Positions 10,482 to 59,355 are shown, counted from the first letter of the stretch. The stretch is 64,000 bases of DNA from an uncultured Gammaproteobacteria bacterium (GCA_963764725.1 CAVXTM010000018.1:256001-320000); one strand, 5' to 3'. Notes: generated by a model not told the origin, from the letters alone. Program-made: numbers and translations.

Positions 10482-11527
10482 AAATCGTTACCGGCCTCCC
10501 CGCTGAAGGCCGAGGTGAGTTTGCGTCCCAAGAAGGTGGCGACGTGTTCTGCCTTGAGGGCATGCACGGCGGTACGCACGATGGCTTGATAGAGGGGTTG
10601 GAAATCGGCTTGGCGGTGGAAGATGACATCGGTCGAGAAAGCCAGGGCCAGGGAGTGGCCCTGCTTGGCGCGCCGAGGATGCAACTCCACCTGCATGAAG
10701 CTCCAGTGATAACCAGCGCGAAACTGACCCAAGATAGGACAGAAGCTTTTCGCCCATCGGTCCAAACGCCGATGCAAGCCTTTGGGATCGAGGCTATCGG
10801 CAAGCGCCTGAGCCTGTTGGGGATCGCCGATGGACAAGAAGGCATTATCGGCGCGCTCAAAGGCGATCCCTGTCTTGGTCAGTCGTTGGGCTAACCAGTG
10901 ATGGCCGTTCAAATAGACCTGCAGGCGAAACGGTGCCCAGGTGGGTACTCGGACATAACAGAGCCCGAAGATCTCATCGATGAAATAGAAGTAATAATGC
11001 AAACACTTGCCCGGGGTAGACTTCAAACGGGTCGTATGCTGAAGCTTGTCATGCCAGGGGCGATACGAAGGACAGGCCTCCATCGCCGAGAAGATATGCA
11101 CCAGCCCCGGGTGCTCACCGCGCAAAGCCAAAATCGCTTTGATCCGTTCTTCTTTACGAAACGCCTTGTAATGACGGATGAATTCAATTTCCAACGAAGC
11201 CTCAGCGGCCAGCCGCTCGGCATGGGGTCCGAAGCGCCTCGCGCAGCGGTTCTGCCCAGCGGGGATAGTCAAACAGACGCATACCCCGGACACCCAAATA
11301 CCGGGCCATAGCCTCGGCATGGGCGATCTCCGGAAGCGTGCCAGTGATCACGATGCGGTCAAAGCAACAAAGCACCGCGGCGATCTTCGCTTGATGGCGT
11401 TCAACAAAGGGAGTTCATGGCGACGACCCATCTCAGTTCTTATTGCCCATCCGCCAGAATAGTACATTCAACACTTTGGTTCCGGCTATGCCGGGTTAGG
11501 ATTCTTAGATCGACTGAGACCGACTTT

Positions 11528-13033
11528 TCACACCGGCCGTTTCACCTTGTCGTAGGTATCCATGAAGACACCTTCCGCCTGGTATTTCTGCCTGACGCTG
11601 TCATAGAGGGAGCAGTCGAACATCCGGCGATATTCATCGCGAGTCAGTTCCGATACCGCGTACAGACACTGGTAACCGCCATGCGCTATCGCGAAAGCCT
11701 CCATCCCGCGGACGGCGCGCCGAGAATCGTAGGGCTCGCCGCGTCGAACCGCCCCCGGGGCACCGTAAACACCGACATCCACGAACATCTCCTCGTCGCA
11801 GGCTTCCTGGGACGGCTTCAAGAACCCCTGAGGCTGGGTGCGGAATGTCCGGTGCGGACAAAGCCACAGCGGGTAGCACTCGAAGTTCGTGTGGAAAAAC
11901 TCGATTGTTTCCGTAAGGTGCCTGATCGGCACCAGCATGTCCTGACACACGTGCCGGTCCTCATAATAGGCGCGGATCGACTCGCCCTGGGTAAGTTTTA
12001 GAAAAGAAACCTTGGGCGGCATCATCCATCCGAGGAGGTAACGGAACAGAAGATGATTGCCGAACGGGATGATGAGCTCCCCTTCCCAGAAGATACTGCG
12101 CGTGTGCCGATGGTAGTACTGCCGCAGGGGAATAGACTCCTCGCCGCCGCCTCGCTCCACGAACGACTCGCAGTGTTTGTAAAACCATGGCTTGAACCAC
12201 CAGCCGATGGCATTCACTTTGGAGTGGTCCGGGCCGGCGGCGAAATCGCCGGTCATGATTACACCGGAGTCCCGGCCGTACAGAATGCCCTCGACAAACT
12301 CGGGCGGATCCGGACGGCAAACCTCCCGGGCGAACACCTCGCAGGCCTCGTTGAGGCTATGAACAGGGTGATAACCGAGTCGCACCCAAGGCTTGCAAGG
12401 GATGATGCGCAGCTCCACTGCGACCAGGATGCCCAGCGCCCCGTACGACCAGGGCAGGGCATGGAATAGATCCGCATGGACCTCGCGGGTAGCGCGAACG
12501 AGCGTGGCGTCCCCTATCACCACCTCGCAAGCCTCGACGATATCGGCGAACAGCCCGTACTTGTGGGATGAGCCTTCGATGCCGAATCCCAGGATTAACC
12601 CACTGACCGTTAAATCGTCGAGCTCCGGGACCACCGGCAAGGTCCATCCCTTGGGAACGAGATAACGGGTGAGCTGGCCGATGGTCGCTCCGGGCTCGAC
12701 CCGGAGGATGGCCCGTTCCGTATCGATTGCCAGGATATCGTAGAGATTGACCCGGATGGTGTTGTCGCGGCGCTTGTAGCGGGCGATCCGCATCGAGACG
12801 TTCATCCAGGATTTGCGCGCCGTGCAGAGGGGCTGCCGGCCGCCGGCTGTTCGCCACTGGCGCACCTGTGCTTGGATATCGCGCACGCGCTCCGTGTGCC
12901 CTTCGGGGGCGCTCTTCAAGCCTCGGTAGTACCAGTTCCGGATAGCCCAATAGAGGTCGAACAGCACCGACAGGGGCAAGACTACGAGCACTACGAACAG
13001 CCAGCGATATCGGACTAGTACATCGGTCAGCAA
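11528..13033 (-). CDS. Delta(24)-sterol reductase (DHCR24/DIMINUTO-like FAD oxidoreductase)
   Basis: VVPELDDLTVSGLILGFGIEGSSHKYGLF, ALPWSYGALG, KPWFYKH, YYHRHTRSIFWE, YPLWLCP, YDKV; N-terminal membrane anchor; TTG start. Confidence 0.9.
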   Translation of the reverse strand: MLTDVLVRYRWLFVVLVVLPLSVLFDLYWAIRNWYYRGLKSAPEGHTERVRDIQAQVRQWRTAGGRQPLCTARKSWMNVSMRIARYKRRDNTIRVNLYDILAIDTERAILRVEPGATIGQLTRYLVPKGWTLPVVPELDDLTVSGLILGFGIEGSSHKYGLFADIVEACEVVIGDATLVRATREVHADLFHALPWSYGALGILVAVELRIIPCKPWVRLGYHPVHSLNEACEVFAREVCRPDPPEFVEGILYGRDSGVIMTGDFAAGPDHSKVNAIGWWFKPWFYKHCESFVERGGGEESIPLRQYYHRHTRSIFWEGELIIPFGNHLLFRYLLGWMMPPKVSFLKLTQGESIRAYYEDRHVCQDMLVPIRHLTETIEFFHTNFECYPLWLCPHRTFRTQPQGFLKPSQEACDEEMFVDVGVYGAPGAVRRGEPYDSRRAVRGMEAFAIAHGGYQCLYAVSELTRDEYRRMFDCSLYDSVRQKYQAEGVFMDTYDKVKRPV

Positions 13034-13164
13034 GTGCGTAGGCTCAGCAACTGATTATTCAGTTTTCTCTTGGCGTTTAGTACATTTTCAGCAATGCGAA
13101 AGAATGCTGCAATCACGGTATACACGGAATTAATTAAAAGCCCTGGTCTATATATAATGTTCTC

Positions 13165-15021
13165 ATGACCATATCGAGAACCGCGCTAGTAATGACTGCT
13201 CTTGTGAGCGCTTGCGCGGGCGGTGGGATCGTTTATTTCGGGCTGCGCGCCGCGAGTACCGGGATCGCGGATCCCCTTTCGCCCCCGGTGCGTGATTTCG
13301 CCCTACTCGATCAGGACGGCCGTTTTCATCAGTTGTATCGGCTCACGAACGCCAAGGCGGTCGTACTATATATTCACGGCCTCGGTTGCACCACGGTGCG
13401 CGACAGCCTGCCGGCGCTGAAAGCGCTGCGCGCTACTTACGCCAAACAAGGCGTGGAATTCATGTTGATCAATGCGAACCCGCAGGACGAACGCAAAGCC
13501 TTAAAGATGGAGGCAGCGCGACTCCATCTCGACATTCCCATCTTAAAGGACGAGGCGCAACTCGTGATCCAGTCCCTGCAAGCTGAGCGGACCGGCGAGG
13601 CGATCCTGATCGATACCAAGACGTGGGCCATTCGTTACCGGGGGCCGATCGATGATCGCATGCATTACGGCTCACAACGGCCCGCAGCGACGCGACACTA
13701 TCTCAATGATGCGCTCGCCGCGGTGCTCGACAAGGAGACCGTGACGGTCGCTCAAGCGCCGGTCGTCGGCTGTGTGCTCAACATCGAGCCGCATGGGCAC
13801 GCGCTCTCCTACACGGGCGACGTCGTACCCATACTCCGCGACCGGTGCATAGACTGTCATCGCGCGGGAGGCGTCGGTCCCTGGGCGATGGACCGCTACG
13901 AGACTCTGCGTGGTTGGTCGCCGATGATGCGCGAGGTCATCATGACCAAGCGCATGCCGCCCTGGCAGGCGGATCCGGCGGTCGGCGAGCTCTTAGCGGA
14001 CCGATCCCTGCGTACCGAGGAACAAAAGACTTTGGTGCGGTGGATCGATGCCGGCGCGCCGCGCGGCGACGGGGCGGACCCCCTGGTTGCACAGCCACCC
14101 GAGGGTGTGCAAGACTGGCCGCTGGGAAAACCTGATCTGGTAATCAAACTTCCCGAGCAGAAGCTGCCCGCGCAGGGCGTTCTGCCCTACCGCTGGTTCA
14201 AGATCCCGGGGCCGATCGACAAGGATCGTTGGGTACGCGCGGTGCACCTCAAACCCAGTAACACCGCCGTCATGCACCACGGGTTCGTGATGGTCCAGTA
14301 TCCCGCGCGGCACAAAGATCGCGAGCCCGCGTGGTTAGAAGGCCGAAACGGGTTCTTTGCCGCCTATGTTCCCGGCTTGGATGTGCAACCGATGCCGAAA
14401 GATTCGGGTCAGTGGTTACCCGCAGGATCGACCTTGGTGTTCCAAATCCATTACATCACCATCGGCGCGCCGGCATCGGATCGGCCGGTATTGGGCCTCT
14501 ATTTCCACCGCGCGCCCCCGCCGAGGGAATACGCGGTCGCCAGCGCCTCGAACAGGGACCTGCGCATCCCGCCCTTCGCCGCGAATCACATCGAAATCGC
14601 GGAGACGACCTTCAGCGAGCGCGTGATGCTCTACGGCTTGTATCCCCATATGCACTATCGCGGACGGCACTTCGATTACGTGGCTCATTTCCCGGACGGC
14701 CGGTCGCAGCGGTTGCTGTCGGTACCGAATTATTCGTTCGGCTGGCAGACGCTCTATCGTCTCAAAAAACCGCGGGAGATCCCGGCCGGAACACGGATCG
14801 TCGCGCGCGCGGAATTCGATAATTCAGAGCAGAATCCCGTCAACCCGGACCCCGCACAAGAGGTGCGGTGGGGGCTCGATAGCGATGATGAAATGCTCGT
14901 CGGCTACCTCATGTACACCCGTGAGCGCGATGATTTTCCTCGACGCCTCAACGATATGGCAAGTAGCGCCGCAGGGCGTAGATCGGTTTCTCATACCAAT
15001 GCCAGATCGCAGTTGCCATGA
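13165..15021 (+). CDS. Exported redoxin + c-type heme + copper type II monooxygenase-like protein
   Basis: N-terminal TM/signal, thioredoxin-like domain (DFALLDQDG), CIDCH heme motif, and PHM-like metal ligands MHHG, QIHY, PHMHYRG, DEM. Confidence 0.7.
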   Translation: MTISRTALVMTALVSACAGGGIVYFGLRAASTGIADPLSPPVRDFALLDQDGRFHQLYRLTNAKAVVLYIHGLGCTTVRDSLPALKALRATYAKQGVEFMLINANPQDERKALKMEAARLHLDIPILKDEAQLVIQSLQAERTGEAILIDTKTWAIRYRGPIDDRMHYGSQRPAATRHYLNDALAAVLDKETVTVAQAPVVGCVLNIEPHGHALSYTGDVVPILRDRCIDCHRAGGVGPWAMDRYETLRGWSPMMREVIMTKRMPPWQADPAVGELLADRSLRTEEQKTLVRWIDAGAPRGDGADPLVAQPPEGVQDWPLGKPDLVIKLPEQKLPAQGVLPYRWFKIPGPIDKDRWVRAVHLKPSNTAVMHHGFVMVQYPARHKDREPAWLEGRNGFFAAYVPGLDVQPMPKDSGQWLPAGSTLVFQIHYITIGAPASDRPVLGLYFHRAPPPREYAVASASNRDLRIPPFAANHIEIAETTFSERVMLYGLYPHMHYRGRHFDYVAHFPDGRSQRLLSVPNYSFGWQTLYRLKKPREIPAGTRIVARAEFDNSEQNPVNPDPAQEVRWGLDSDDEMLVGYLMYTRERDDFPRRLNDMASSAAGRRSVSHTNARSQLP

Positions 15022-16003
15022 GGAGTGAAATCGCAAAGCCCCCAGCGACAACGCCGATCTGCTGGGGCAGTGGAAGCTTGAGATCGAGGGAGTTGAACAA
15101 AGTCATGGCGATCAGATGCACGAGATACAGCGTATAGCTCATGGTGCCGAAGTACACCAAAGGTCCGAAGCTTAGCACGCGCACCACGAGGTGGGACTCA
15201 GGCAGCGACCACAAGCCCCAAATGAAGAATCCCATACTCAATGCAATCGGCGTCTGGTAGTGAGAGGTCGAGAATTGTAGAAAGCCGCTTTGGCCCAGCG
15301 AAAACTCGATGCCGATCAAACTCAGTATCGCGATCATCGAGAGGCTCAAGGTCCAGGGCGGGGAGAACCGCGGCAGCCTTTGCTGATACTCGAGCCACGA
15401 GAAAATACATCCCCAGACGAAATATTCCGCGCACACCGGTAAGAGTGTCCCGTAGAACGATTTCGGATAACGAGACATGAACCAGAAACGCGCCGCGATG
15501 CTCATGATCAGCACGGAAAATAACATCGTGGTCCGATAGCGCGGGGGCGTGATGTAAAGGAGCAGCGGATAGACAATATAAAATTGCTCCTCGACGCTCA
15601 AGGACCAGAGATGCATCGATTCATCGCGCCAACCCTGTAAGAACCACTCGTCGAATGCCGCGCTCGGAATCAGGCTCAGGGCAAAGAGTTTGATATTGAA
15701 AAGGTAGGCGAGATAGTACGCCGGGTAGGTGAGTGCTTCCATGCCGATCAATAGCAATACCACGAGATAATAGGCTGGGCATATCCTCAAGATTCTTCGG
15801 GTATAGAAAACCTTGAGCTTGGTAAGCACGCTCGGGTGATCGGCGGACAAAAGCACGTTGGTGATGAGAAAACCGCTCATCACGAAGAAGACGGGTAATG
15901 CATAGCCCAGGTAACCCACGTGAAAAGGGTTCGGCGCGTAATGAGTGGCAAAGACCATCAGGAATAAAACAAAACGCAAGCCGTCGAGCTGGTGTTTTCT
16001 CAT
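14948..16003 (-). CDS. Acyltransferase family 3 (OafA-like) membrane protein
   Basis: LDGLRF, FFVMSGFLIT, FYTRRILRI, HLWSLSVEEQFY, SYTLYLVH, YEKP. Confidence 0.9.
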   Translation of the reverse strand: MRKHQLDGLRFVLFLMVFATHYAPNPFHVGYLGYALPVFFVMSGFLITNVLLSADHPSVLTKLKVFYTRRILRICPAYYLVVLLLIGMEALTYPAYYLAYLFNIKLFALSLIPSAAFDEWFLQGWRDESMHLWSLSVEEQFYIVYPLLLYITPPRYRTTMLFSVLIMSIAARFWFMSRYPKSFYGTLLPVCAEYFVWGCIFSWLEYQQRLPRFSPPWTLSLSMIAILSLIGIEFSLGQSGFLQFSTSHYQTPIALSMGFFIWGLWSLPESHLVVRVLSFGPLVYFGTMSYTLYLVHLIAMTLFNSLDLKLPLPQQIGVVAGGFAISLLMATAIWHWYEKPIYALRRYLPYR

Positions 16004-16301
16004 ATTGATTTCGTCCAGAGTTAGCTACCACAGAGCGCCGCCGGAGCATGATCAACAACACCTACGCTCCAAGGGCGGCCAGGACATGCTTGAGGCTGTG
16101 GCCTCTCAGCCAACCGCTCAGATAATACATCTCGAAGCCAATGTTGGTGATTACATCGCCGAAATGCGGAATTTCAAAGAAGACCCACTGGTCGGCGAAA
16201 TCATGGTAGTTGGGATCCTGCGGGATCGGGTCAATAAATAAGGCGGCGAGTGACGTCAAGGCGCCGGGGGCGATGACAGCCACGATCCGCCAGCGCGACA
16301 T
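16004..16301 (-). pseudogene. Alkaline ceramidase-like membrane protein remnant (internal deletion plus premature stop)
   Basis: The N-terminal motif PIPQDPNYHDFADQ...VITNIGF is joined directly to the C-terminal motif GHSLKHVLAALGA*; the frame continues LLIMLRRR past the TAG at 16062. Confidence 0.6.
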
Positions 16302-16321
16302 CTGCGCCTGGCCGGCATAAA

Positions 16322-16786
16322 TCAGCGTGCTGCTGAAAACTCCGGCACGGGCTCGCCCATCCCAGCTCGCAAGAAGATCAGCGCGCCGGCCCGTGTCGTG
16401 AGTGCAGGGTGGGCGGCGCCCTTGGGCGCAAAGTGATAATCGCCCGCGCGGACGGTGATTTCGCCGAAGGTGATCTCTCCTTCCAGCACCAGGCATTCCT
16501 CATTGGCGGCGTGGAGATGCGGAGGGAGAGTGACACCGGCTTCCAAGCGGGCCAGCAAAGAATTCGCGCGACCGTTTTCATCTCGGTGCAGGATCTTGAA
16601 TCGGATCCCGGGCCCGAAGTCCATCCAACCTTCGGCCGAGCGTATCGTGCGTAGCTGCGTGAGCGGATGCTCGGCACGTACGCGCGCCGTGATCCTCTCG
16701 TGCAAGCCGGCCGGCGGCTGCATCGGGGCTAGCGCATCGGCCCACTGCGTGAATAGCTCGGTATCGAATAGATCTTCGTCATTCAT
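16322..16786 (-). CDS. ChrR-like cupin anti-sigma factor
   Basis: Cupin motif LPPHLHAANEECLVLEGE...GDYHFAPKGAAH; follows the ECF sigma gene. Confidence 0.8.
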   Translation of the reverse strand: MNDEDLFDTELFTQWADALAPMQPPAGLHERITARVRAEHPLTQLRTIRSAEGWMDFGPGIRFKILHRDENGRANSLLARLEAGVTLPPHLHAANEECLVLEGEITFGEITVRAGDYHFAPKGAAHPALTTRAGALIFLRAGMGEPVPEFSAAR

Positions 16787-16789
16787 AAC

Positions 16790-17548
16790 TTACACGACCG
16801 GAGCGCCTTCTTGAGCCGCACCGCAATGTTCCGGCCAAGGCCACATTCCACGGGCCTCTGCGGCCATTAGCTGCTCTTTCATCAGTTGCATTGCCCGCCG
16901 CAAGACCGTCTTCACAGTACCGAGAGGCGTCGCGGTGTAATCCGCGATTTCCTGATGGCTGAACCCCTTAAAATAGCTCAGGACCAACATTTGCCGCTCG
17001 TTCACGCTAAGCGCCTCGAGCGCCGCGCGCACGAGGCTATGCTCCTCAAGGCCGCAGAGGGCATCCAACGGATCGGCGGCTACATCCGCGTCCTCGCACG
17101 GCATCTCGGACGACAGACAGATCTCTGCCGGATTACGGCGGCGTAGCAAATCAATCGCGCGGCTGCGGCAGATCGTGTACAGCCAGGTCATGATCTTTCC
17201 ACGGTTGGGATCGTAGGCGCCGGCGCGTCGCCAAACGTGCAAGTACACGTCTTCCGTGACCTCTTCGGCATCGTTCCGTTGTCCCGTGATACGCAAGGCC
17301 AAAGCAAAAACGCGACCTGCCGTCGCCTCGTAGAGCGCGGAAAGTGCCGCTTCTTCTTTGCCGGCGATACCCGAAAGCAACCCGCGCAAGGCGATCTCTT
17401 GGGTATCGAACTCGATCGTCTCCGAACCGGCGTTCACAGTTGCATTATAACACCCGAACCCACTCTGCGCGCCGGATGCGGCCCGAGAAGGCAGGCGGCC
17501 AGACTGACCGTTGCTGCGCGACGTCCGGTATTCGTCTGCTGCGTTCAC
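16790..17548 (-). CDS. ECF RNA polymerase sigma factor (true start possibly GTG ~17437)
   Basis: DAEEVTEDVYLHVW, WLYTICRSRAIDLLR, region 4 SHQEIADYTATPLGTVKT. Confidence 0.9.
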   Translation of the reverse strand: MNAADEYRTSRSNGQSGRLPSRAASGAQSGFGCYNATVNAGSETIEFDTQEIALRGLLSGIAGKEEAALSALYEATAGRVFALALRITGQRNDAEEVTEDVYLHVWRRAGAYDPNRGKIMTWLYTICRSRAIDLLRRRNPAEICLSSEMPCEDADVAADPLDALCGLEEHSLVRAALEALSVNERQMLVLSYFKGFSHQEIADYTATPLGTVKTVLRRAMQLMKEQLMAAEARGMWPWPEHCGAAQEGAPVV

Positions 17549-17737: not shown

Positions 17738-18004
17738 ATGTCTGAAACAAAGTTACGGGAACATCTCGAAAGGTTGAGGGAACAAGTGAACGATCTCGGT
17801 GCAGGGAAACCCGAATCGATAGAGCGGCTAAACCGGCTTATTACGGACATCGAAAGTCAATTGGAAAATCGAGGTAACCAGACCCAGAATGAGGACCTCA
17901 TCGCCAATGTACAAGGGGCAATCCGGCATTTCGAAGTCGAGCATCCTCGGGCGACGGCGATTTTGAACGACATCATGGTTGCGCTCAGCAATATCGGGAT
18001 TTGA
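17738..18004 (+). CDS. DUF4404-family small helical protein
   Basis: C-terminal FEVEHPRATAILNDIMVALSNIGI signature. Confidence 0.8.
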   Translation: MSETKLREHLERLREQVNDLGAGKPESIERLNRLITDIESQLENRGNQTQNEDLIANVQGAIRHFEVEHPRATAILNDIMVALSNIGI

Positions 18005-18029
18005 GGGAGTGCCCGCCACAATCGGCGGG

Positions 18030-18950
18030 GTGAATATACCAGTGAATGCCAGGAAAACCGCCGAAACGGCACGCATTCAACGCATCACCCTCTACCCGAT
18101 CAAGTCACTCGACGGCGTCTCCGTGGCGGAGACGCGCATCGCCCCGGGTGGGAGCCTTGAACATGATCGTGCCTTTGCCGTCGTGGATGCCCAAGACAAG
18201 TTTGTAAACGGCAAGCGCTTCGCCGAGGTGCATCGGCTGCGCGCGCACTTCGATCTGGACACACACATGGTCACGCTTGCGGATTCAGGGACGAGCGCGC
18301 CGCAGCGCTTCCGGCTAGACCGAGACCTGGAACGGATGGAAGCGTGGCTGAGCACGTTTTTCGGCTTCTCGGTAACGATCCGGCAGGACCCGCGGACCGG
18401 CTTCCCCGACGACACGGACGCCTCGGGACCGACCGTGATCAGCGCGGCGACGCTGGCGGCGGTCAGCGCCTGGTTCCCCGGCGCCACACCGCAAGATATG
18501 CAGCTTCGTTTCCGGACCAATCTTGAGATTAGCGGTGTTTCCGCATTCTGGGAAGACCGTCTGTTCGGGAAGCCCGGCACGCTGGTGGATTTTAACGTCG
18601 GGGGGGTCGCTTTCGAGGGCGTCAATCCCTGCCAGCGCTGTGTCGTACCGGCGCGCGACCCGCGGAGCGGGATCGAGGAGTCGGGCTTCCAGAAAACCCT
18701 GGCCATGAGACGCGAACAGACGTTACCCGACTGGGCGGCCCGCTCGCGGTTTAATCACTACTACCGCCTCGCCGTCAATACCCGGATCCCGCCCTCTGAA
18801 GCCGGCAAGACCCTTCGGGTCGGGGATGAAGTCACGATCCTTGGAGTACGCCCGCGAATGATGAATAGGAATCCCCAGGCGGCGATCTATCGGCCTATAG
18901 GTTCGATCTGCACGGCACCGAGGGACAGGAGTGTGGGCTTTCATGGGTGA
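18030..18950 (+). CDS. MOSC domain protein
   Basis: LYPIKSLDG, HDRAFA, RFRTNLEI, PCQRCVVP; start uncertain (GTG 18030 or 18042). Confidence 0.85.
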   Translation: MNIPVNARKTAETARIQRITLYPIKSLDGVSVAETRIAPGGSLEHDRAFAVVDAQDKFVNGKRFAEVHRLRAHFDLDTHMVTLADSGTSAPQRFRLDRDLERMEAWLSTFFGFSVTIRQDPRTGFPDDTDASGPTVISAATLAAVSAWFPGATPQDMQLRFRTNLEISGVSAFWEDRLFGKPGTLVDFNVGGVAFEGVNPCQRCVVPARDPRSGIEESGFQKTLAMRREQTLPDWAARSRFNHYYRLAVNTRIPPSEAGKTLRVGDEVTILGVRPRMMNRNPQAAIYRPIGSICTAPRDRSVGFHG

Positions 18951-51982: not shown

Positions 51983-53206
51983 TTACGTGATTTTCGAACG
52001 TTGTCCTGCTATACGCATCCGAAGTGCATTTAATTTTATGAAACCACCCGCGTCTTTTTGATCATAGGCTCCGGCATCGTCTTCGAAGGTCGCAATAGCG
52101 GTGTCGAAGAGACTGTCCGTGTCGGATTTCCGGCCCGTCACCATGACGGTGCCTTTATACAGCTTTAAACGCACGACGCCGTTCACGTGCGCCTGCGCCG
52201 CGTCAATTAATTCCTGCAACATACGGCGCTCGGGGCTCCACCAATAGCCGTTGTAGATCAGCGCGGCATAGCGGGGCATGAGATCGTCCTTTAGATGGGC
52301 CACCTCGCGGTCGAGCGTGAGCGATTCGATCGCGCGGTGCGCCTTGAGCAAAATCGTCCCGCCCGGCGTCTCGTAGCAGCCGCGTGACTTCATGCCGACG
52401 TAGCGGTTCTCTACGATATCAAGCCGCCCGATCCCATGCTCACCGCCTAAGTGATTCAGCGTCGCGAGCACCGCCGCCGGCGCCAGGCGGGTGCCATCAA
52501 TGGCCACGGCGTCACCGCTTTCGAAGGTCAATTCGACGTAACGCGGCTGGCCGGCGGCGGCCTCGGGCGATTTCGTCCAACGCCACATTGAGGGATCAGG
52601 CTCGACCCAGGGATTTTCGAGCTCGCCGCCCTCGTAGGAGATGTGCAAGAGGTTCGCATCCATGGAATAGGGCGCTTTCCTGCCGCTCGTACGCTCGACG
52701 GGTATCGCGTACCGCTCGGCATAGACGAGCAATTGCTCGCGGGAGGCAAGGTCCCACTCGCGCCACGGCGCGATGACCTTGATATCGGGCTTGAGCGCAT
52801 AGGCGCCGAGCTCGAAGCGCACCTGATCATTGCCCTTGCCGGTGGCGCCGTGAGCGATCGCGTTCGCCCCGGTCTCGCGCGCGATCTCGACCAGGCGCTT
52901 AGCGATGAGTGGCCGAGCGATCGAGGTCCCCAACAGATACTCGCCCTCGTAAATCGCGTTCGCGCGGAACATCGGAAACACAAAGTCACGCACGAATTCT
53001 TCCTTGAGATCGTCGATATAGATCTCCTTCACACCGAAAGCCTGCGCCTTCACGCGTGCGGGCTCGAGCTCTTCGCCCTGGCCGATGTCGGCCGTAAAAG
53101 TCACCACTTCACAGCGGTAGGTCTCCTGCAGCCACTTTAAAATCACGGAGGTATCGAGCCCGCCGGAATAGGCCAGCACGACTTTCTTAATCGATTCGTT
53201 CCTCAC
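51983..53206 (-). CDS. argG: Argininosuccinate synthase
   Basis: [32 protein letters not shown]; start GTG 53206 with GGAG RBS. Confidence 0.97.
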
Positions 53207-53439
53207 ACGATTACTCCGAATCATCTGGTTGAGCCACACACAATCGCTTCCACCATTGTACACATCCGTGCCCCAATTCCCATGAAACGGGCCAAAATTA
53301 ATCGCGGCCTCTACGCATGCGGCTGGTATTGAGCGGCCTGTAGCGTTTTTACATGTATTTTCTGCGCAAGGCGCCGGTTGTTAGCTATAGCCTTATCGCC
53401 GTAGCTCGGCACCGCGCTTGCGCAAGCGTGGTAGGTTTC

Positions 53440-55911
53440 TTAGCTCAGCGGCGCTGTTACGCCGAGCAGAATGAATGCGCCCCAGTAATAGGGATGGTCA
53501 AAGGGATGGTATGAGTCGGGTTGTGTAAGGTATGGTTCGAGGGCAGCACGAACCGTCATCTTGTGATCGCTGAGGCGCTCAAATATCTTGGTATTAAACC
53601 ACCAATCGCGGAGCTGACCGATGGTGAGTTGCCGAAGGTAGCATTGTGCCTGCCGCAGGGCCTCATCGCGACGCATACGCGCATCGATCAGGTTCTCGTA
53701 CAACCGCGACATGAAGATCGCCGTCGGTAAGTCCGCGACTTTCCAAAGGCTCATGATGAGGGTTTTAGTTCCCGCCAGGATGAAGGCTCTCCGCAAGCCC
53801 AACACACCTTCTCCGATCGCGACATCACCCAGCCCCGTTTCGCAGGCCGACAGTACGACAAGCTCCGTGGCTAGCAAATCAAGACCGGCGACCTCTTCCG
53901 CTGTCAAAACCCCATCGTTCCCGTCTTCAGGTAAGACTTCCCGCGTGAAGACATGATTAGCGCCGGCAAGCGCGAGCCCCGAATGCAGTAGCGGGTTTTC
54001 CAGCGGGAATAACCAGGGTTCAGACTCACTAAACGGCAGGGCGGGATCCGAATGAGACCGGTGCTTATTCAAGAAAAACCCATGCGTTGCGAGGTGAAGG
54101 ATGCGCGGAGATCTCCGCCCCTTGAGATGTTTGACCAAGGCTGTTGAGCCGTGCCACAGCGGAACACCAAGCATACTGGCAATGATCTCACCTTCGATGC
54201 GTGTTCCCGGCAGTCGCTCGAAATACCACTGCTTATACCGAGCGTTTGGAGTCTGACGGTTCGACGCTTTATCGCCTGCATCCGGCCGTTCGCTCTCGGG
54301 TCCACCGCGGCCGCGCAACTTTCGAAGCAGTGCTTGGAATAGAGAACGGCTGCGGTGATACCCGTCGCGCCTTGAAAGGTCGAAGTCCGGATCCGCGATG
54401 ACCACGGGCGATGAAGCTAAGGTGCTCGATCCCGTTCGCGAGCGCAACAACTCCCGTCCGCTATCGAGGTAGCTTAGGCAGTAGTCGTCTGCTAAGAACC
54501 GGGTCCCACTGTCTAGAGGTAAAGCTTCAAAAGGTAGCCGAGTGAGCTCCCCATCTGTCGCCAGGATCACGCGCGATCTGTCTCCAATGATGCGCCGTAT
54601 AGGGTCAAAGAGCGCTGCACGTAAGGCTAGTCCCGGCGATTCCATTAGCGCCGTCGATGGTTCCTCGTCGGAAACCAAACCACGATACTGTACATTCGCG
54701 CACCCAATGACGCATGAGCGGAATCGACTAATGAGCCGATCAATCGTAACAGCATCGCCAAGGTCTATTATTCGGACTGCCTGAGGCGCGTCGGCTAGCA
54801 GAATTAACGCCGCATAGCGATACTCCTGCCACAGGTTATTTTCGTGGATTTGCATAGAAGCAACGTCGTATCGGCGGAACTTCACAAACTCGACCAAGGC
54901 GCTGCTTGATGGCAGGGCCGATGCTACGGCATGCAGGCTAATGACGCCTAGCGTCTCTTCAAATGGGGTTACGTCGGAAATCTCCCGCGACAATGCCGCT
55001 TCCTCTTCCCGTCGCTCCGTCTGCCGATTCTGCAGGTCCCGGTAATGCGTATCCGGCGATTCGTTCGCGGACGAGCAGCGAAGGGCCTTCCGTGCGATTT
55101 GCTGGCGGAGCAGCCGGTAAGCTTCTAACCGAGGTTGAATGGGCAACTTACGTTCAGACATCAACGCAACACGCCGGACTAGCGACAATTCGAGACCGAG
55201 CGCCTTACGTCGGAAGATGATCTCCAGCAGCACTCCGGGTGCGTCCGGTGAGCCCGGGAAATACCGCAATGCGATGGAAAGGAACAGATAGTATCCTTGA
55301 CGTATCGATTCAACGCACGCCGTCTGGTCTCGCTCGGAACCCCGGGAAACGACTCGGCTGATCATCTGGTCACGTGCGGTTTCCGAATCCCACATGGCAG
55401 CTAGAGCTTCTCGAACACGACCGGTTATGGCGTATACCCACGCTAGATCGGTCAGGATACTTGCGATAGCCGCCGGATCGTGCAATCGTTTGTAACGATC
55501 CAGGGCTTGCCGGTAGAGTATCTCAGCCTCGGAAAAATTACCCATAGCCCTATGGACTGTGGCCAGGTTGCTGAGACTCATAAGGTACAGAGGGCCGTCT
55601 TCCCCGGCCGTGGCGCGCGAGATGTCTATGACCTGCTGGTGTAGTGTCGTGGCTTCTTTGTAACGTCCCATTGCCACATAAGCTAAAGCAAGATTGTTTA
55701 TACTTTCAGCATAACCGGGATGGGATGGACCATACATCGCAAGGAGCATGTCACTGGCCTCGCGGTAGCGCTTCTCGGCCTGCGCATGGTCTCCTTCCGC
55801 AAGTAGCACATCGGCCTGACGCTGCAGATTTTCCGCGCGCTCAACAGATGGGGCTAACATATGCACATTTGCATCATTCACATCGCCCCATTGCGTGTGC
55901 GCAGTCCCCAA
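53440..55911 (-). CDS. TPR-CHAT (caspase-like) protease
   Basis: N-terminal kinesin-light-chain-type TPRs (HPGYAESINNLA). CHAT dyad ILHLATHGFF (His) and LVVLSACETG (Cys). C-terminal HPYYWGAF. Confidence 0.92.
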   Translation of the reverse strand: MGTAHTQWGDVNDANVHMLAPSVERAENLQRQADVLLAEGDHAQAEKRYREASDMLLAMYGPSHPGYAESINNLALAYVAMGRYKEATTLHQQVIDISRATAGEDGPLYLMSLSNLATVHRAMGNFSEAEILYRQALDRYKRLHDPAAIASILTDLAWVYAITGRVREALAAMWDSETARDQMISRVVSRGSERDQTACVESIRQGYYLFLSIALRYFPGSPDAPGVLLEIIFRRKALGLELSLVRRVALMSERKLPIQPRLEAYRLLRQQIARKALRCSSANESPDTHYRDLQNRQTERREEEAALSREISDVTPFEETLGVISLHAVASALPSSSALVEFVKFRRYDVASMQIHENNLWQEYRYAALILLADAPQAVRIIDLGDAVTIDRLISRFRSCVIGCANVQYRGLVSDEEPSTALMESPGLALRAALFDPIRRIIGDRSRVILATDGELTRLPFEALPLDSGTRFLADDYCLSYLDSGRELLRSRTGSSTLASSPVVIADPDFDLSRRDGYHRSRSLFQALLRKLRGRGGPESERPDAGDKASNRQTPNARYKQWYFERLPGTRIEGEIIASMLGVPLWHGSTALVKHLKGRRSPRILHLATHGFFLNKHRSHSDPALPFSESEPWLFPLENPLLHSGLALAGANHVFTREVLPEDGNDGVLTAEEVAGLDLLATELVVLSACETGLGDVAIGEGVLGLRRAFILAGTKTLIMSLWKVADLPTAIFMSRLYENLIDARMRRDEALRQAQCYLRQLTIGQLRDWWFNTKIFERLSDHKMTVRAALEPYLTQPDSYHPFDHPYYWGAFILLGVTAPLS

Positions 55912-56712
55912 TCAAAGCACTTCGTAGTCTTTTCTGAGCAGTTGCCAAAGCGTTTTTGGGGTCTGGGCTATATGGGTAGCCAAGCGGTCGAGTGCATCCG
56001 CCCGGCATCCTTGCATAAGACCTGCGTATAGATCATCGGTAAGGGGGGAGCCCGTGATCAAAACCAAAACGCTTTGCGGTCCTACCGGACCGGCAACTTT
56101 TAAGGTTTTCTCCGGCGCCCTTTGCGGGACTAGCAACGTAGGAGAATTTAGCTGCGCATTTGGCGCCAATGCGGATGGGCAAAGACAAGTGGTTTTAGCA
56201 CGGTCCACACTCAGCAACACTGCGTAGCTATGGCCGCGTTGTGAGTTTTCATTCCATTCGTCAGTCAAGGTAAGTGAAATATACAGCCGTTCACCTAATT
56301 GAAACTGTTCAAGCGGTTCGTCATCGTCAGCGATCAGACCGCGTGACTGAGCTTCCAGCTCTAAACGATGCTCTTGACGCACGAGATGAATCGCATCCGA
56401 GGTAGCTGCCTGCGCTAGCAGTTGCGGCCAAGGCCCGTCCCGTAATGGCGATGAGTGCAGTAAGGCCTTGAATTCCTCTAGCGAGTCGATCTCCAGCCAC
56501 TGCATGGGTACCTCAAATAGATCCGTGATACGCTTGATATGCCGGCTCGGCACCAGCTCCCGCGCACGGACCTCATTGCCGTTGATCCAGATCGAGATGT
56601 TGTTCGGTGCGATCCCGAGATGCTCCGCGAGGAGCTCGTGCGTGTTCACGCGCTCGTGGCGCTGATACAAACACTGTAGCTTCTTGGCTAGGCTTGGAAC
56701 ATGTAGGGGCAT
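55912..56712 (-). CDS. XRE-like HTH + DUF4384-like domain protein
   Basis: HELLAEHLGIAPNNISIWING HTH; C-terminal FQLGERLYISL...LCPS...VPQ...GPVGPQSVLVLITGSPL resembles DUF4384. Its stop abuts the CHAT start; alternative start 56736. Confidence 0.7.
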   Translation of the reverse strand: MPLHVPSLAKKLQCLYQRHERVNTHELLAEHLGIAPNNISIWINGNEVRARELVPSRHIKRITDLFEVPMQWLEIDSLEEFKALLHSSPLRDGPWPQLLAQAATSDAIHLVRQEHRLELEAQSRGLIADDDEPLEQFQLGERLYISLTLTDEWNENSQRGHSYAVLLSVDRAKTTCLCPSALAPNAQLNSPTLLVPQRAPEKTLKVAGPVGPQSVLVLITGSPLTDDLYAGLMQGCRADALDRLATHIAQTPKTLWQLLRKDYEVL

Positions 56713-56880
56713 GACCTTACGCTTCTCGGAGCTCAATACGACAGAATCCTGCGGCCCGGTGTCACCCGTTCAGTCCGGTATTATGCGCCCGTGTTGCTGG
56801 TATCCTCCTCGTGTAAGGCAGGATTATAGGACCCGAGCGCGGGAGATCAATGTAAAAATTCGACATTTCTAAGCTGCCAC

Positions 56881-57840
56881 TCACTGGTTTGGTACCTGCT
56901 TCAATCGCTCCGCAGCGATGACGCGAACGGTCTCATCCGCGTCCGAAAGCGCCTTCTCGAGCAGCGCTTCGCCCTCCTTGCCGGGAGCCACGCTGTCCAC
57001 AGCGACGATCCGCACACCTGGGTCTGGGTCCTCCAACGCTTGCCAGAGCTGGCCCATGGCTTCCGGCCCGCCGCGGCTCACCAGGGCTTGATGCGCCGCA
57101 CTACGCACGCTAGGGTCCTTGTCGCTGAGCGCCGCGTCGAGGGTGTTGCGAACCTCCGGCTCGTCCGATTTACCGCTTTGCCCCAGCGCCGAGACCGCTT
57201 CGGCACGCATGGCGGGATCGTCATGCTCCGCCATCTTCGTGTAGTGTTGGATGACATCGTTCTCATCGAGCATCGAATCACTCGCGTCACCTTCGGATTC
57301 AACTGTACTCGGCTGCTCTTCCGGCATCGGTATGGCACCGTGCGCTGGCGCATGAGCTCCGTGCCGCGCGGACGCACTGCCTCCTTCTTCAAGCTGTCCA
57401 AGGATCCAGACCTCCTTCGGTGCGGACGGCGATCCTGACCCGTTTGGAGGATACCGAAAAATAAAACTCGCTTCCGGTCCGAACAGTCGAGCCATGGCTG
57501 GCTCAAAGGAAAGGCCGGTAAAGGACGCGGTGACCGATCCTTGAAACGGGTGGGCGTGATGAAACCGGATCCCGGTCCGCGCTTGGATCGCGTCCAGCAC
57601 ATCTTTCCAGGAGCTGTGCGCCGCCTGCAGGCTTAGCCGGCCGTTTTCAAAACGTACGCTCGGCACCGTGTCGACGGTCACCGGGGATCTCGATAGCGCT
57701 TCCTCGTTAGCGTTCGCACTGGCTAGCGTCGTGAGCAGCCCCGTCGTAACGAGCATGGCAACGAACGCCAGTGCGCGATTAGGCTTACTCCCGCAGTCTC
57801 GGTTTTTCGATAAGGCATTGATTCGGGCGACAGGGTTCAT
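56881..57840 (-). CDS. Exported protein with secretin-N0/STN-like domain and HEAT repeats
   Basis: Signal peptide (..ASANA), LSLQA...WKDVLDAIQARTGIRF, then four HEAT repeats of the form D.DP.VR..A. Confidence 0.75.
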   Translation of the reverse strand: MNPVARINALSKNRDCGSKPNRALAFVAMLVTTGLLTTLASANANEEALSRSPVTVDTVPSVRFENGRLSLQAAHSSWKDVLDAIQARTGIRFHHAHPFQGSVTASFTGLSFEPAMARLFGPEASFIFRYPPNGSGSPSAPKEVWILGQLEEGGSASARHGAHAPAHGAIPMPEEQPSTVESEGDASDSMLDENDVIQHYTKMAEHDDPAMRAEAVSALGQSGKSDEPEVRNTLDAALSDKDPSVRSAAHQALVSRGGPEAMGQLWQALEDPDPGVRIVAVDSVAPGKEGEALLEKALSDADETVRVIAAERLKQVPNQ

Positions 57841-57915: not shown

Positions 57916-58371
57916 CTACTGGTCCTGAACGAGCGTTGCTTGATCCCCGGCAAAGCGATTGCCGTTGGCGTCATGGCAGTCTACCGTGAGGGTATACCCC
58001 TCGAAACCTTCGCCGTCTTTGTGGACCATACCCAGGTAACTGCCTGGTCCGCCCGCCAAGATCGCTTCAGGAGACAAACCTCCATTTACACCGCTCTCGG
58101 TGACGGCACTCCCATGGGGGTTAATGACCTGTACGCTGAGCTGTACTACGTCATTGTTACCTTCGTTGATTTTCGCTCGTGCCGTACTGGTCTCCGGAGG
58201 GCAAGCGAGGAGATACACGTCGGTGGCACCGATCTTATCCGTGGTCGGATCGTTGCTACCGATCCCTCTGGCAGTAGGACCATCTCCCGCCGCATACGCG
58301 GAGAAGGCGCCGCCTATTCCGGCGACTAACGATACCGCCGCGGTCATACATCTAAGTGTCTTCGTATTCAT
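57916..58371 (-). CDS. Secreted two-Cys beta-rich protein, paralog 4
   Basis: MNTKTL signal peptide, TDVYLLAC, GPGSYL...K...EGY...C, ends QDQ; RBS AGGAG. Confidence 0.8.
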   Translation of the reverse strand: MNTKTLRCMTAAVSLVAGIGGAFSAYAAGDGPTARGIGSNDPTTDKIGATDVYLLACPPETSTARAKINEGNNDVVQLSVQVINPHGSAVTESGVNGGLSPEAILAGGPGSYLGMVHKDGEGFEGYTLTVDCHDANGNRFAGDQATLVQDQ

Positions 58372-58914: not shown

Positions 58915-59355
58915 CTACTGGTTTATCCGCCGCGTTAAGCCTGCGACCGGGGCAAGAACCGCCCCGTTAGTGCAAAACGCTTCGCCGGTATAACCTTCAG
59001 CGCCACCGCCGGTCTTCTTGAAGGCCATCGTGTAGCCGACTGGCCCATCAGAGACCGCGGCAAATCCGGACGCCGCACCACCCTCGGTGTCTGTCGCTTG
59101 GGCAGTCGGATTGCCATCGTGTCCCAACACCACTTGCACAGCAGCGGCGGCATTGTTGGGTCCGTTATCCAACACCCTGGCTACGGCACCCAGAGCGGCC
59201 GGCCCACAGGTGAAGGTCCAGACGTCGATACCGTTCGCCACAACAACCCCCAGCGCCTGCTGGCCGGTCGTTGTTGCAAGTGCGGGGGAGGCGGCGCCGA
59301 TGCCGATGAGCAACGATGCCGCTGCGGTCATACCTTTTAGTGTCTTCGTATTCAT
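58915..59355 (-). CDS. Secreted two-Cys beta-rich protein, paralog 3
   Basis: MNTKTL signal peptide (SPALA), IDVWTFTC, GPVGY...KKT...EGYTG...C, ends INQ. Confidence 0.8.
   Translation of the reverse strand: MNTKTLKGMTAAASLLIGIGAASPALATTTGQQALGVVVANGIDVWTFTCGPAALGAVARVLDNGPNNAAAAVQVVLGHDGNPTAQATDTEGGAASGFAAVSDGPVGYTMAFKKTGGGAEGYTGEAFCTNGAVLAPVAGLTRRINQ

Follow-up and report, generated by a model that had tools for sequence, protein, structure and literature searches.

Two genes that lie side by side on the minus strand of a 64,000-nucleotide stretch of DNA from an uncultured, sulfur-cave Gammaproteobacteria bacterium (GCA_963764725.1 CAVXTM010000018.1:256001-320000; hereafter, the window) raise a simple question: why do a protease and the protein encoded next to it carry nearly the same short peptide? 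The first gene (53440..55911; longest open reading frame (ORF) of 823 amino acids) encodes a protease that matches the tetratricopeptide repeat (TPR) family TPR_12 and the CHAT protease family in Pfam. The second, upstream of it (55912..56736; longest ORF of 274 amino acids), encodes a partner protein that consists of a putative helix-turn-helix (HTH) domain, a loop, and a DUF4384-like domain. In this work, we consider whether the pair is a two-gene protease-substrate switch of the type formed by Csx29 and Csx30, acting independently of CRISPR, a reading to which we give an even chance. Genomes and loci used for comparison are denoted by G and L numbers, respectively.

The shared loop motif and its covariation

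The peptide YRGLVSDEEP occupies residues 409-418 of the protease (54658-54687) and the peptide SRGLIADDDEP residues 131-141 of the partner (56314-56346). Both had been reported in a first-pass annotation of the window, and both are recovered at these positions when the minus strand is translated, whereas the plus strand encodes unrelated peptides there. The annotation had also placed them in likely loops, and the AlphaFold2 models bear this out. In the protease model (predicted local distance difference test (pLDDT) 81.9, predicted template modelling score 0.84), residues 408-423 have pLDDT below 50 and form a coil flanked by helices 387-404 and 426-434; the pre-CHAT loop that carries the protease's own copy of the motif spans residues 405-425 (54637..54699). 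In the partner model (pLDDT 81.1), residues 124-140 have pLDDT below 50 and connect strands 116-120 and 143-145, which are strands 1 and 2 of a beta-sandwich; the partner loop as a whole spans residues 121-142 (56311..56376), with the motif inside it.

When the two proteins are compared over their full lengths, the highest-scoring ungapped 8-mer match is this motif pair. When loop is compared with loop, 21, 3, and 1 of 2000 shuffles reach the score of the window's pair at scan windows of 5, 6, and 7, respectively. The motif codons differ synonymously between the two genes (cgt/cgc, ttg/ctg, cca/ccg), which argues that the likeness is kept at the protein level and does not reflect recent gene conversion. 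Taken alone, the window's pair is not significant, and significance is established through its relatives.

Alignments of orthologues support the motif as a conserved, functional element of both proteins. The close partner family is small, with 18 matches among 5.8 billion clusters. R132, G133, and L134 of the partner are invariant in all 19 aligned sequences, down to 52% identity, and 90% or more of them share A136, D137, and D138; the remainder of the linker is variable. On the protease side, R410, G411, S414, and E417 are invariant in six orthologue rows. In a wider alignment of the CHAT loop (54 homologues, found with protease residues 300-560), R-G-[LF] followed by acidic residues stands at the same position in 12/12 close orthologues (at least 49% identical) and is absent from the loop in 42/42 remoter TPR-CHAT proteins. 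The locus L003 has R-G-L in both proteins even at 52% partner identity and 37% protease identity.

A profile search for the partner in 1.84 billion representatives extends the family to 190 proteins at E <= 0.001. Among the 150 matches listed, 96 span the loop; of these distant members, 66 have R in the first motif column, 60 have G in the second, and 71 have one of L/I/V/F/M in the third. These columns are conserved like the core of the fold and are the most conserved of the loop, the adjacent loop columns being mostly gaps. Again among the matches listed, 38 of the 49 occurrences of RG[LIVMF] in 26,803 residues fall in the partner loop.

Covariation in homologous gene pairs had been proposed in the first-pass annotation as a check, and it is observed: across distant pairs, the motif shifts jointly in both proteins, so that the loop motifs differ by lineage yet match within a pair. 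In Gammaproteobacteria, both proteins have RG[LF] followed by acidic residues; in seven Nostocales-type pairs, both have TL[GA]W; and the shared motif is DH[FL]GM in L126, LG[VA]R in L125, L[DE]MG in L035 and L042, and GL[CM]D in L041. The cyanobacterial genome G637 holds two pairs, L127 and L129, with slightly different motifs that are matched within each pair.

For a quantitative comparison, the 22-residue partner loop was scanned against the entire protease (741-1405 amino acids) at scan windows of 5 and 6. Left out of the 17 pairs scanned were L001, L008, and L010 (truncated CHAT), L039 and L040 (broken or missing partner), L087 (loop unaligned by the profile), and L128 (different CHAT architecture). 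At both scan windows, 12 of the 17 pairs have their best match inside the pre-CHAT loop of ~30 residues, where the expectation from loop length is ~3% per pair; by lineage, the counts at scan window 6 are 4/4, 6/7, 1/1, 1/1, 0/2, 0/1, and 0/1. Shuffling both loops reaches the observed score in 0/2000 cases for L126, L127, L129, L131, and L132, and in 1/2000 for L130. When proteases and partners are re-paired, using one pair per lineage, 2, 20, and 4 of 5040 permutations reach the observed total in three representative sets.

A trivial explanation is that the two loops, being acidic and flexible, look alike through chance or composition, with no shared function. It could draw on the insignificance of the window's pair by itself and on the acidic runs, which yield matches between lineages in the score matrix and inflate some cross-class scores. 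Four observations run counter to it: the motif columns are invariant in the orthologues of both proteins; within-pair matches extend to non-acidic motifs such as TL[GA]W and DH[FL]GM; the loop contains the best match in 12 of 17 pairs, against the ~3% expected for each pair; and the permutations that reach the sum number 2 to 20 of 5040. We therefore regard chance resemblance as very improbable.

Proteins, gene pairing, and locus

The protease ORF matches Pfam CHAT (PF12770) with 222.8 bits (cut-off 24, E 8.4e-66) over residues 427-817 (53461..54633). The catalytic dyad, previously annotated as intact, is indeed so: His610 (54082-54084) and Cys690 (53842-53844) are both present in the window's protein, and among 40 aligned relatives the former is invariant and the latter is retained in at least 90%. 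The N-terminal part contains a TPR or helical-repeat region (residues ~21-217, 55261..55851), delimited by model helices within 21-217 and by matches to several TPR families (TPR_12: E 2.1e-39). Between this helical part and the protease domain is a three-stranded beta mid-region (residues 337-386, 54754..54903), with model strands 337-348, 361-372, and 375-386. A Foldseek search with the model places the TPR-CHAT (Csx29) chains of Craspase first (E 5e-13 to 1e-10, including 8d9f_A at 5e-13 and 8eey_B), followed by human separase (9hn5_A, E 4e-11) and then DdvA (8rot_A).

The TPR region is the obvious candidate for a sensor, and it is also a candidate peptide-binding domain. The latter role suggests a second explanation of the twin loops, which the first-pass annotation had mentioned: the motif may be a docking peptide for a TPR groove resembling that of kinesin light chain (KLC), with the protease's own loop acting as an autoinhibitor in cis and any cleavage taking place at some other site. 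An autoinhibitory peptide is also present within KLC itself. A profile of the TPR region matches KLC TPR domains with E 2e-66, and the Foldseek matches include KLC TPRs (3zfw, 6f9i) that, by their entry titles, were solved with tryptophan-acidic cargo peptides. The motifs found here are hydrophobic and then acidic, or contain Trp, and competition between cis and trans peptides would account equally well for the covariation. The KLC-like TPR region thus adds weight to docking. We nevertheless consider docking less likely than the proposed switch, though a serious rival to it, since the partner's motif is positioned where Csx30 is cut, namely the loop or hairpin that starts the C-terminal domain; since in the solved Csx29-Csx30 complex the substrate contacts the active caspase domain only; and since the motif pattern resembles known Craspase cut sites.

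In the partner, an N-terminal helical, Xre-like HTH domain (residues ~10-108, 56413..56709) is predicted from model helices (16-24, 33-40, 44-52, 64-74, and 86-95) and from weak HTH matches. The 274-residue protein itself reaches only E 0.025-0.08 against Pfam HTH families; the partner-family profile matches homeodomain, HipB, Cro, and LexA-type HTH chains at E 6e-5 to 0.05, and the partner homologue of L124 scores 32 bits against HTH_3 (cut-off 23). The same N-terminal domain heads NACHT/nSTAND-TPR proteins, an association that is typical of output domains of conflict systems. The remainder of the protein is modelled as a strand-rich, DUF4384-like beta-sandwich (residues 143-274, 55915..56310), completed by strand 116-120, and is a candidate docking domain. 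Against DUF4384 (PF14326), the window's partner scores 23.7 bits, under the cut-off of 27, whereas its homologues in L035, L124, and L125 score above it (36.6, 37.7, and 32.8 bits, respectively); the window's partner is thus a divergent relative of DUF4384 and not a scored member. A fold search with the partner model returns generic beta-sandwiches only (the GlgE N-domain, RhoGDI, and lytic polysaccharide monooxygenase) and no solved Csx30 chain. In Pfam searches, neither protein has a Peptidase S24 or ImmA-type domain.

The N-terminus is not of the Xre type in the partners of four cyanobacterial pairs, L035 (2970-3854), L042 (2705-3589), L066 (2315-3265), and L087 (2834-3736), which share another N-terminal domain of ~100-180 residues; that of L035, the only one run against Pfam, matches no family. 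To judge from these sequences, what stays constant in the partner is the loop together with the DUF4384-like domain, while the output domain can be exchanged.

In its distribution, the pair resembles an accessory module of two genes. The partner adjoins the CHAT gene in L001, L002, L003, L007, and L008, where contigs permit, and lies directly upstream of it in the first four; the flanking ORFs are unlike among the window, L002, and L003. Within the window's order, the partner occurs in 4 of 15 genomes, a count that includes the unpublished genomes G008 and G011, and is confined to one genus (4/9, including the window's genome). A profile search of the class Gammaproteobacteria gives matches at E <= 1e-5 in 10 of 401 genomes, full-length only in the window's genome and in G117. 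At L026 (4498-5087, 8450-8990, 9339-9975), the orphan G117 homologue stands among small paired ORFs whose translations resemble toxin-antitoxin pairs.

Outside this class, a partner homologue lies directly upstream, on the same strand, in 7 of the nearest 80 TPR-CHAT genome loci, and all seven are cyanobacterial. When the partner profile alone is run against 401 genomes from the cyanobacterial class, 11 further loci are added. In eight of these, the next gene downstream encodes a TPR-CHAT protein, which has the same build in seven cases and another build in one. The pre-CHAT loop has a median length of 32 residues with a partner (n=7) versus 18 without one (n=76). Other types of partner were sought beside long-looped CHAT proteins that have no DUF4384 neighbour; the best recurrent match, in L065 and L070, is the HTH of an IS630-type transposase within a folded region and was rejected as chance. 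At the cyanobacterial loci L039 (2468-2935, 3896-4999, 4936-7692) and L131 (1798-7344), the partner is truncated or the CHAT gene is split across frames, so that these are either decaying copies or assembly errors.

In Nostocales-type pairs, the divergent gene beside the partner is a fusion of reverse transcriptase (RT) and Cas1. Four of six upstream ORFs tested have RVT_1 and three of these also have Cas1, the ORF of L037 ending at the edge of the locus. The features concerned are located at L037 2-829(-), L038 822-2909(-), L127 1-1158(-), L132 7448-8701(+), and L135 351-2357 and 2707-3387. In G813, CRISPR-like arrays with a period of ~72 nt follow the RT-Cas1 gene. Given these neighbours and arrays, the Nostocales-type TPR-CHAT/DUF4384 pairs look CRISPR-associated, unlike the pair of the window. 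At L136, on the far side of the same cyanobacterial pair, a Peptidase_C14 caspase adjoins a DUF1822 protein, and a sigma70-r4/NB-ARC/TPR protein and an M48 peptidase are encoded there as well (ORFs 11510-12394(-), 12462-13481(-), 14645-16918(+), and 17910-18818(-)); by its gene content, this neighbourhood looks like a conflict-system island.

The two genes of the window had been described as abutting with no gap, which holds for the longest ORFs only. Their end-to-end contact requires a TTG start of the CHAT ORF, and the true start of the protease gene is probably the ATG at 55860 (residue 18). Residues 1-18 of the CHAT ORF have pLDDT below 50 and are not conserved across orthologues, and the CHAT orthologue of L002 starts at the equivalent of residue 16-17, 44 nt past the partner's stop codon; the intergenic gap is therefore probably 24-51 nt. 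Similarly, the partner gene probably starts at the ATG at 56712 (residue 9), to judge from the sequence: it is preceded by AAGG, and 15 of the 19 aligned homologues start at the equivalent of residue 9. A promoter-like site (TTGATC, 16 nt, TATAAT; 56823..56850, minus strand; 10/12 matches) lies upstream of the partner gene. It is the sole sigma-70-like site in 53200-57000, but shuffled sequences average 2.1 sites, and hence the indication is weak.

Upstream of the module, 56881-57840(-) encodes a HEAT-repeat protein of 319 residues whose N-terminus includes a hydrophobic segment, and 57916-58371(-) and 58915-59355(-) encode paralogous proteins of ~150 residues with signal-peptide-like N-termini that belong to no Pfam family. 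The near-identical locus L001 shares the HEAT-repeat protein and the protein of 57916-58371 and holds two more ORFs of ~155 residues with similar N-termini. The cluster of HEAT-repeat and ~150-residue proteins is not seen in L002 or L003. The window's genome contains a second, shorter CHAT-domain ORF on another contig (G000:C10:102980-103777, L012; 419 amino acids, 66 bits).

The putative cut bond and the readings of the twin loops

The proposed switch would operate as follows. The TPR-CHAT protease would recognise the flexible loop of the partner and most likely cut inside it, so that the HTH domain would be detached from the remainder of the partner and transcription would change. The protease's own copy of the loop would compete for the same site. 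It may serve as a pseudosubstrate, keeping the enzyme inactive until a signal is sensed by the TPR part, or alternatively as an autocleavage site in the manner of separase. If one site reads both loops, the loops would be expected to drift together in evolution.

The first-pass annotation had envisaged much the same mechanism, with cleavage at R|GL that both processes the protease and releases the DNA-binding domain. The mechanism in general is partly supported by the conserved motif in exposed loops, by the within-pair covariation, and by the analogy to Csx29 and Csx30, which is apt: the protease fold matches the Craspase TPR-CHAT, and the C-terminal domains of some Csx30 proteins belong to DUF4384, according to a preprint. 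What is not supported is Arg as the residue before the cut. It is missing from the matching motifs of the cyanobacterial pairs, and three Craspases cut after M, L, or A. What the aligned motifs of the pairs have in common is that a small residue (G, A, D, or E) precedes a hydrophobic residue (L, F, W, M, V, or A). The Craspase sites VGM|KK, IDL|D, and A|S, which vary between orthologues, are cut after the hydrophobic residue of such a small-then-hydrophobic pattern. Given the Arg-free cyanobacterial motifs and the Craspase sites, RGL|V in the protease and RGL|I in the partner are favoured over R|GL, and by this analogy a scissile bond after the hydrophobic residue is the more likely one.

Several points weigh against the proposed switch. 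At the level of the window, 49/300 partner shuffles equal the 8-mer match of the pair, and 33/300 do so for 10-mers. At the level of the pairs, the match is poor in some lineages: loop shuffles reach the score in 446/2000 cases at scan window 5 and 71/2000 at scan window 6 for L125, in 208-782/2000 for L035 and L042, in 95-202/2000 for L041, and in ~1710/2000 for L066; the L087 loop, when placed by position, scored low; and L128, whose CHAT is differently built, has its best match in the C-terminal tail, at a score without significance (160/1000 shuffles). The lineage classes, moreover, were defined with the motifs already in view, and pairs inside a class are kin. As for the gene pairing, 3 of the 11 further cyanobacterial homologues (L124, L133, and L134) have no adjacent CHAT gene, and the gammaproteobacterial homologue in G117 keeps R-G-L in a genome that is 99% complete and has no CHAT match, which indicates that the motif can persist without the TPR-CHAT protease. 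Finally, the sequence of the loop reportedly matters little for cleavage of Csx30 by Craspase, and the strict conservation seen here is therefore somewhat unexpected for a pure scissile site. A complex prediction for CHAT residues 18-823 and partner residues 105-274, made with a separate alignment for each, gives scores of 0.01 and 0.04, where the mark is 0.32, and counts neither way.

The case of G117 bears on a further explanation, in which a third factor reads both loops and the CHAT protein and its partner are co-regulated targets. The factor might be a host protease, for example an orthocaspase that cuts after Arg, or a protease of an invader for which the loops serve as bait. G117 has, besides its R-G-L partner, two Peptidase_C14 genes elsewhere; DUF4384 is often fused to caspase-type proteases; and Arg occupies the first motif column in 66/96 distant members. 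We judge this explanation unlikely, however. It does not sit well with the tight gene pairing, seen at 8 of the 11 further loci and at all orthologue loci where the contig permits. The motif also differs between the two pairs of G637, which fits a pair-specific reading better than one common outside factor, and the two caspases of G117 have no matching loop (92-302/500 shuffles reach the score).

Returning to the proposed switch, a more speculative extension is that the twin loops form an evolvable address code, in which the built-in copy of the substrate loop sets the threshold of each protease and the code changes jointly in both proteins. We regard this as possible, though on balance doubtful. 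If true, several modules could act in one cell without cross-talk, as L127 and L129 in G637 might, and the pairs would be a natural panel of orthogonal, self-inhibited proteases with predictable substrates, some of them standing alone and some accompanied by CRISPR adaptation genes. Should the pairs prove orthogonal to one another, they could find use as programmable sets of protease and substrate, a use to which Craspase orthologues are put already.

For thousands of CHAT and caspase-like proteases of bacteria, no substrate is known. In the present case, three candidates follow from sequence alone: the adjacent HTH/DUF4384 protein as substrate, a loop of ~10 residues as site, and the protease's own copy of that loop as control element. 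Since the within-pair covariation across distant lineages does not depend on any single alignment, simple mutants can test all three.

Comparison with known systems

The module and its shared loop are not described in the literature found on DUF4384, on CHAT with HTH, or on TPR-CHAT from 2023 onward, supplementary files not being covered; large comparative-genomics papers may list the gene pair in their supplements. The literature on CHAT with HTH and a substrate, and on TPR-CHAT since 2023, comprises CRISPR-linked, DdvA, and unrelated work only. In the accessible part of the DUF4384 literature, the nearest statement is the remark on the C-terminal domain of Csx30.

In the self-cleavage of LexA and CI and in the cutting of ImmR by ImmA, an HTH repressor is inactivated by a cut between its DNA-binding and C-terminal domains. 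The protease resides within the same protein or next door and is a serine protease of the S24 class or a metalloprotease. The partner differs from LexA and CI in that it has no S24 match in Pfam, and we know of no substrate-mimic loop in proteases of the LexA/CI/ImmA type.

DdvA of Myxococcus xanthus, a transmembrane anti-sigma factor, is an example of a TPR-CHAT module tied to transcription control, and its structure (8rot_A) matches the fold of the window protease. It has been suggested that DdvA cuts its own flexible linker. DdvA differs in being periplasmic, membrane-anchored, and dimeric, with an incomplete active site; it lacks a separate DUF4384 partner, and no shared motif is described for it.

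Separase (peptidase C50), like the window protease, combines a TPR-like domain with a caspase-fold protease. To our knowledge, no lineage-by-lineage change of motif is known for it. Unstructured inserts before its protease domain carry a substrate motif, and its own autocleavage motif has been seen in the active site; securin is an inhibitor that mimics the separase substrate. In sequence, the unstructured loop of the window protease likewise carries a motif that appears to be of the substrate type, and by this analogy separase is the best precedent for the protease's own loop copy. The differences are that separase is eukaryotic and much larger, that it cuts after Arg in ExxR, and that its substrate is cohesin and not a transcription factor.

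The closest system is that of Csx29 and Csx30. Csx29, the top Foldseek match, has the same fold of TPR, pseudo-caspase, and active caspase as the window protease, and its substrate, like the putative one here, is the product of a neighbouring gene with a regulatory part at the N-terminus. The folded C-terminal domain of Csx30 binds the active caspase domain, and the cut, made in a flexible loop that opens this beta domain, frees the regulatory N-terminal part; the partner model has a matching architecture, with loop 124-140 in the corresponding place. The systems differ in activation and output. The window's genome, which is 96.9% complete, has no RAMP-family match, although Cas7-11 was not searched with a dedicated model; its Cas1 genes are on other contigs only; and there is no tandem repeat array within the window. 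The module of the window thus appears to stand alone, unlike the Csx29 of type III-E systems, which is activated by Cas7-11. The output here would be a direct HTH domain, whereas that of the Csx29 system is a complex of Csx30, Csx31, and a sigma factor. In addition, the window protease bears its own copy of the substrate loop, and such a copy is not described for Csx29 in the accessible reports. The pair would extend the logic of Csx29 and Csx30 beyond CRISPR-Cas and tie it to self-mimicry of the separase style. Within the common theme of a TPR-CHAT protease and its substrate, the distinctive feature of the pair is a substrate-like loop in the protease that co-evolves with the loop of its partner.

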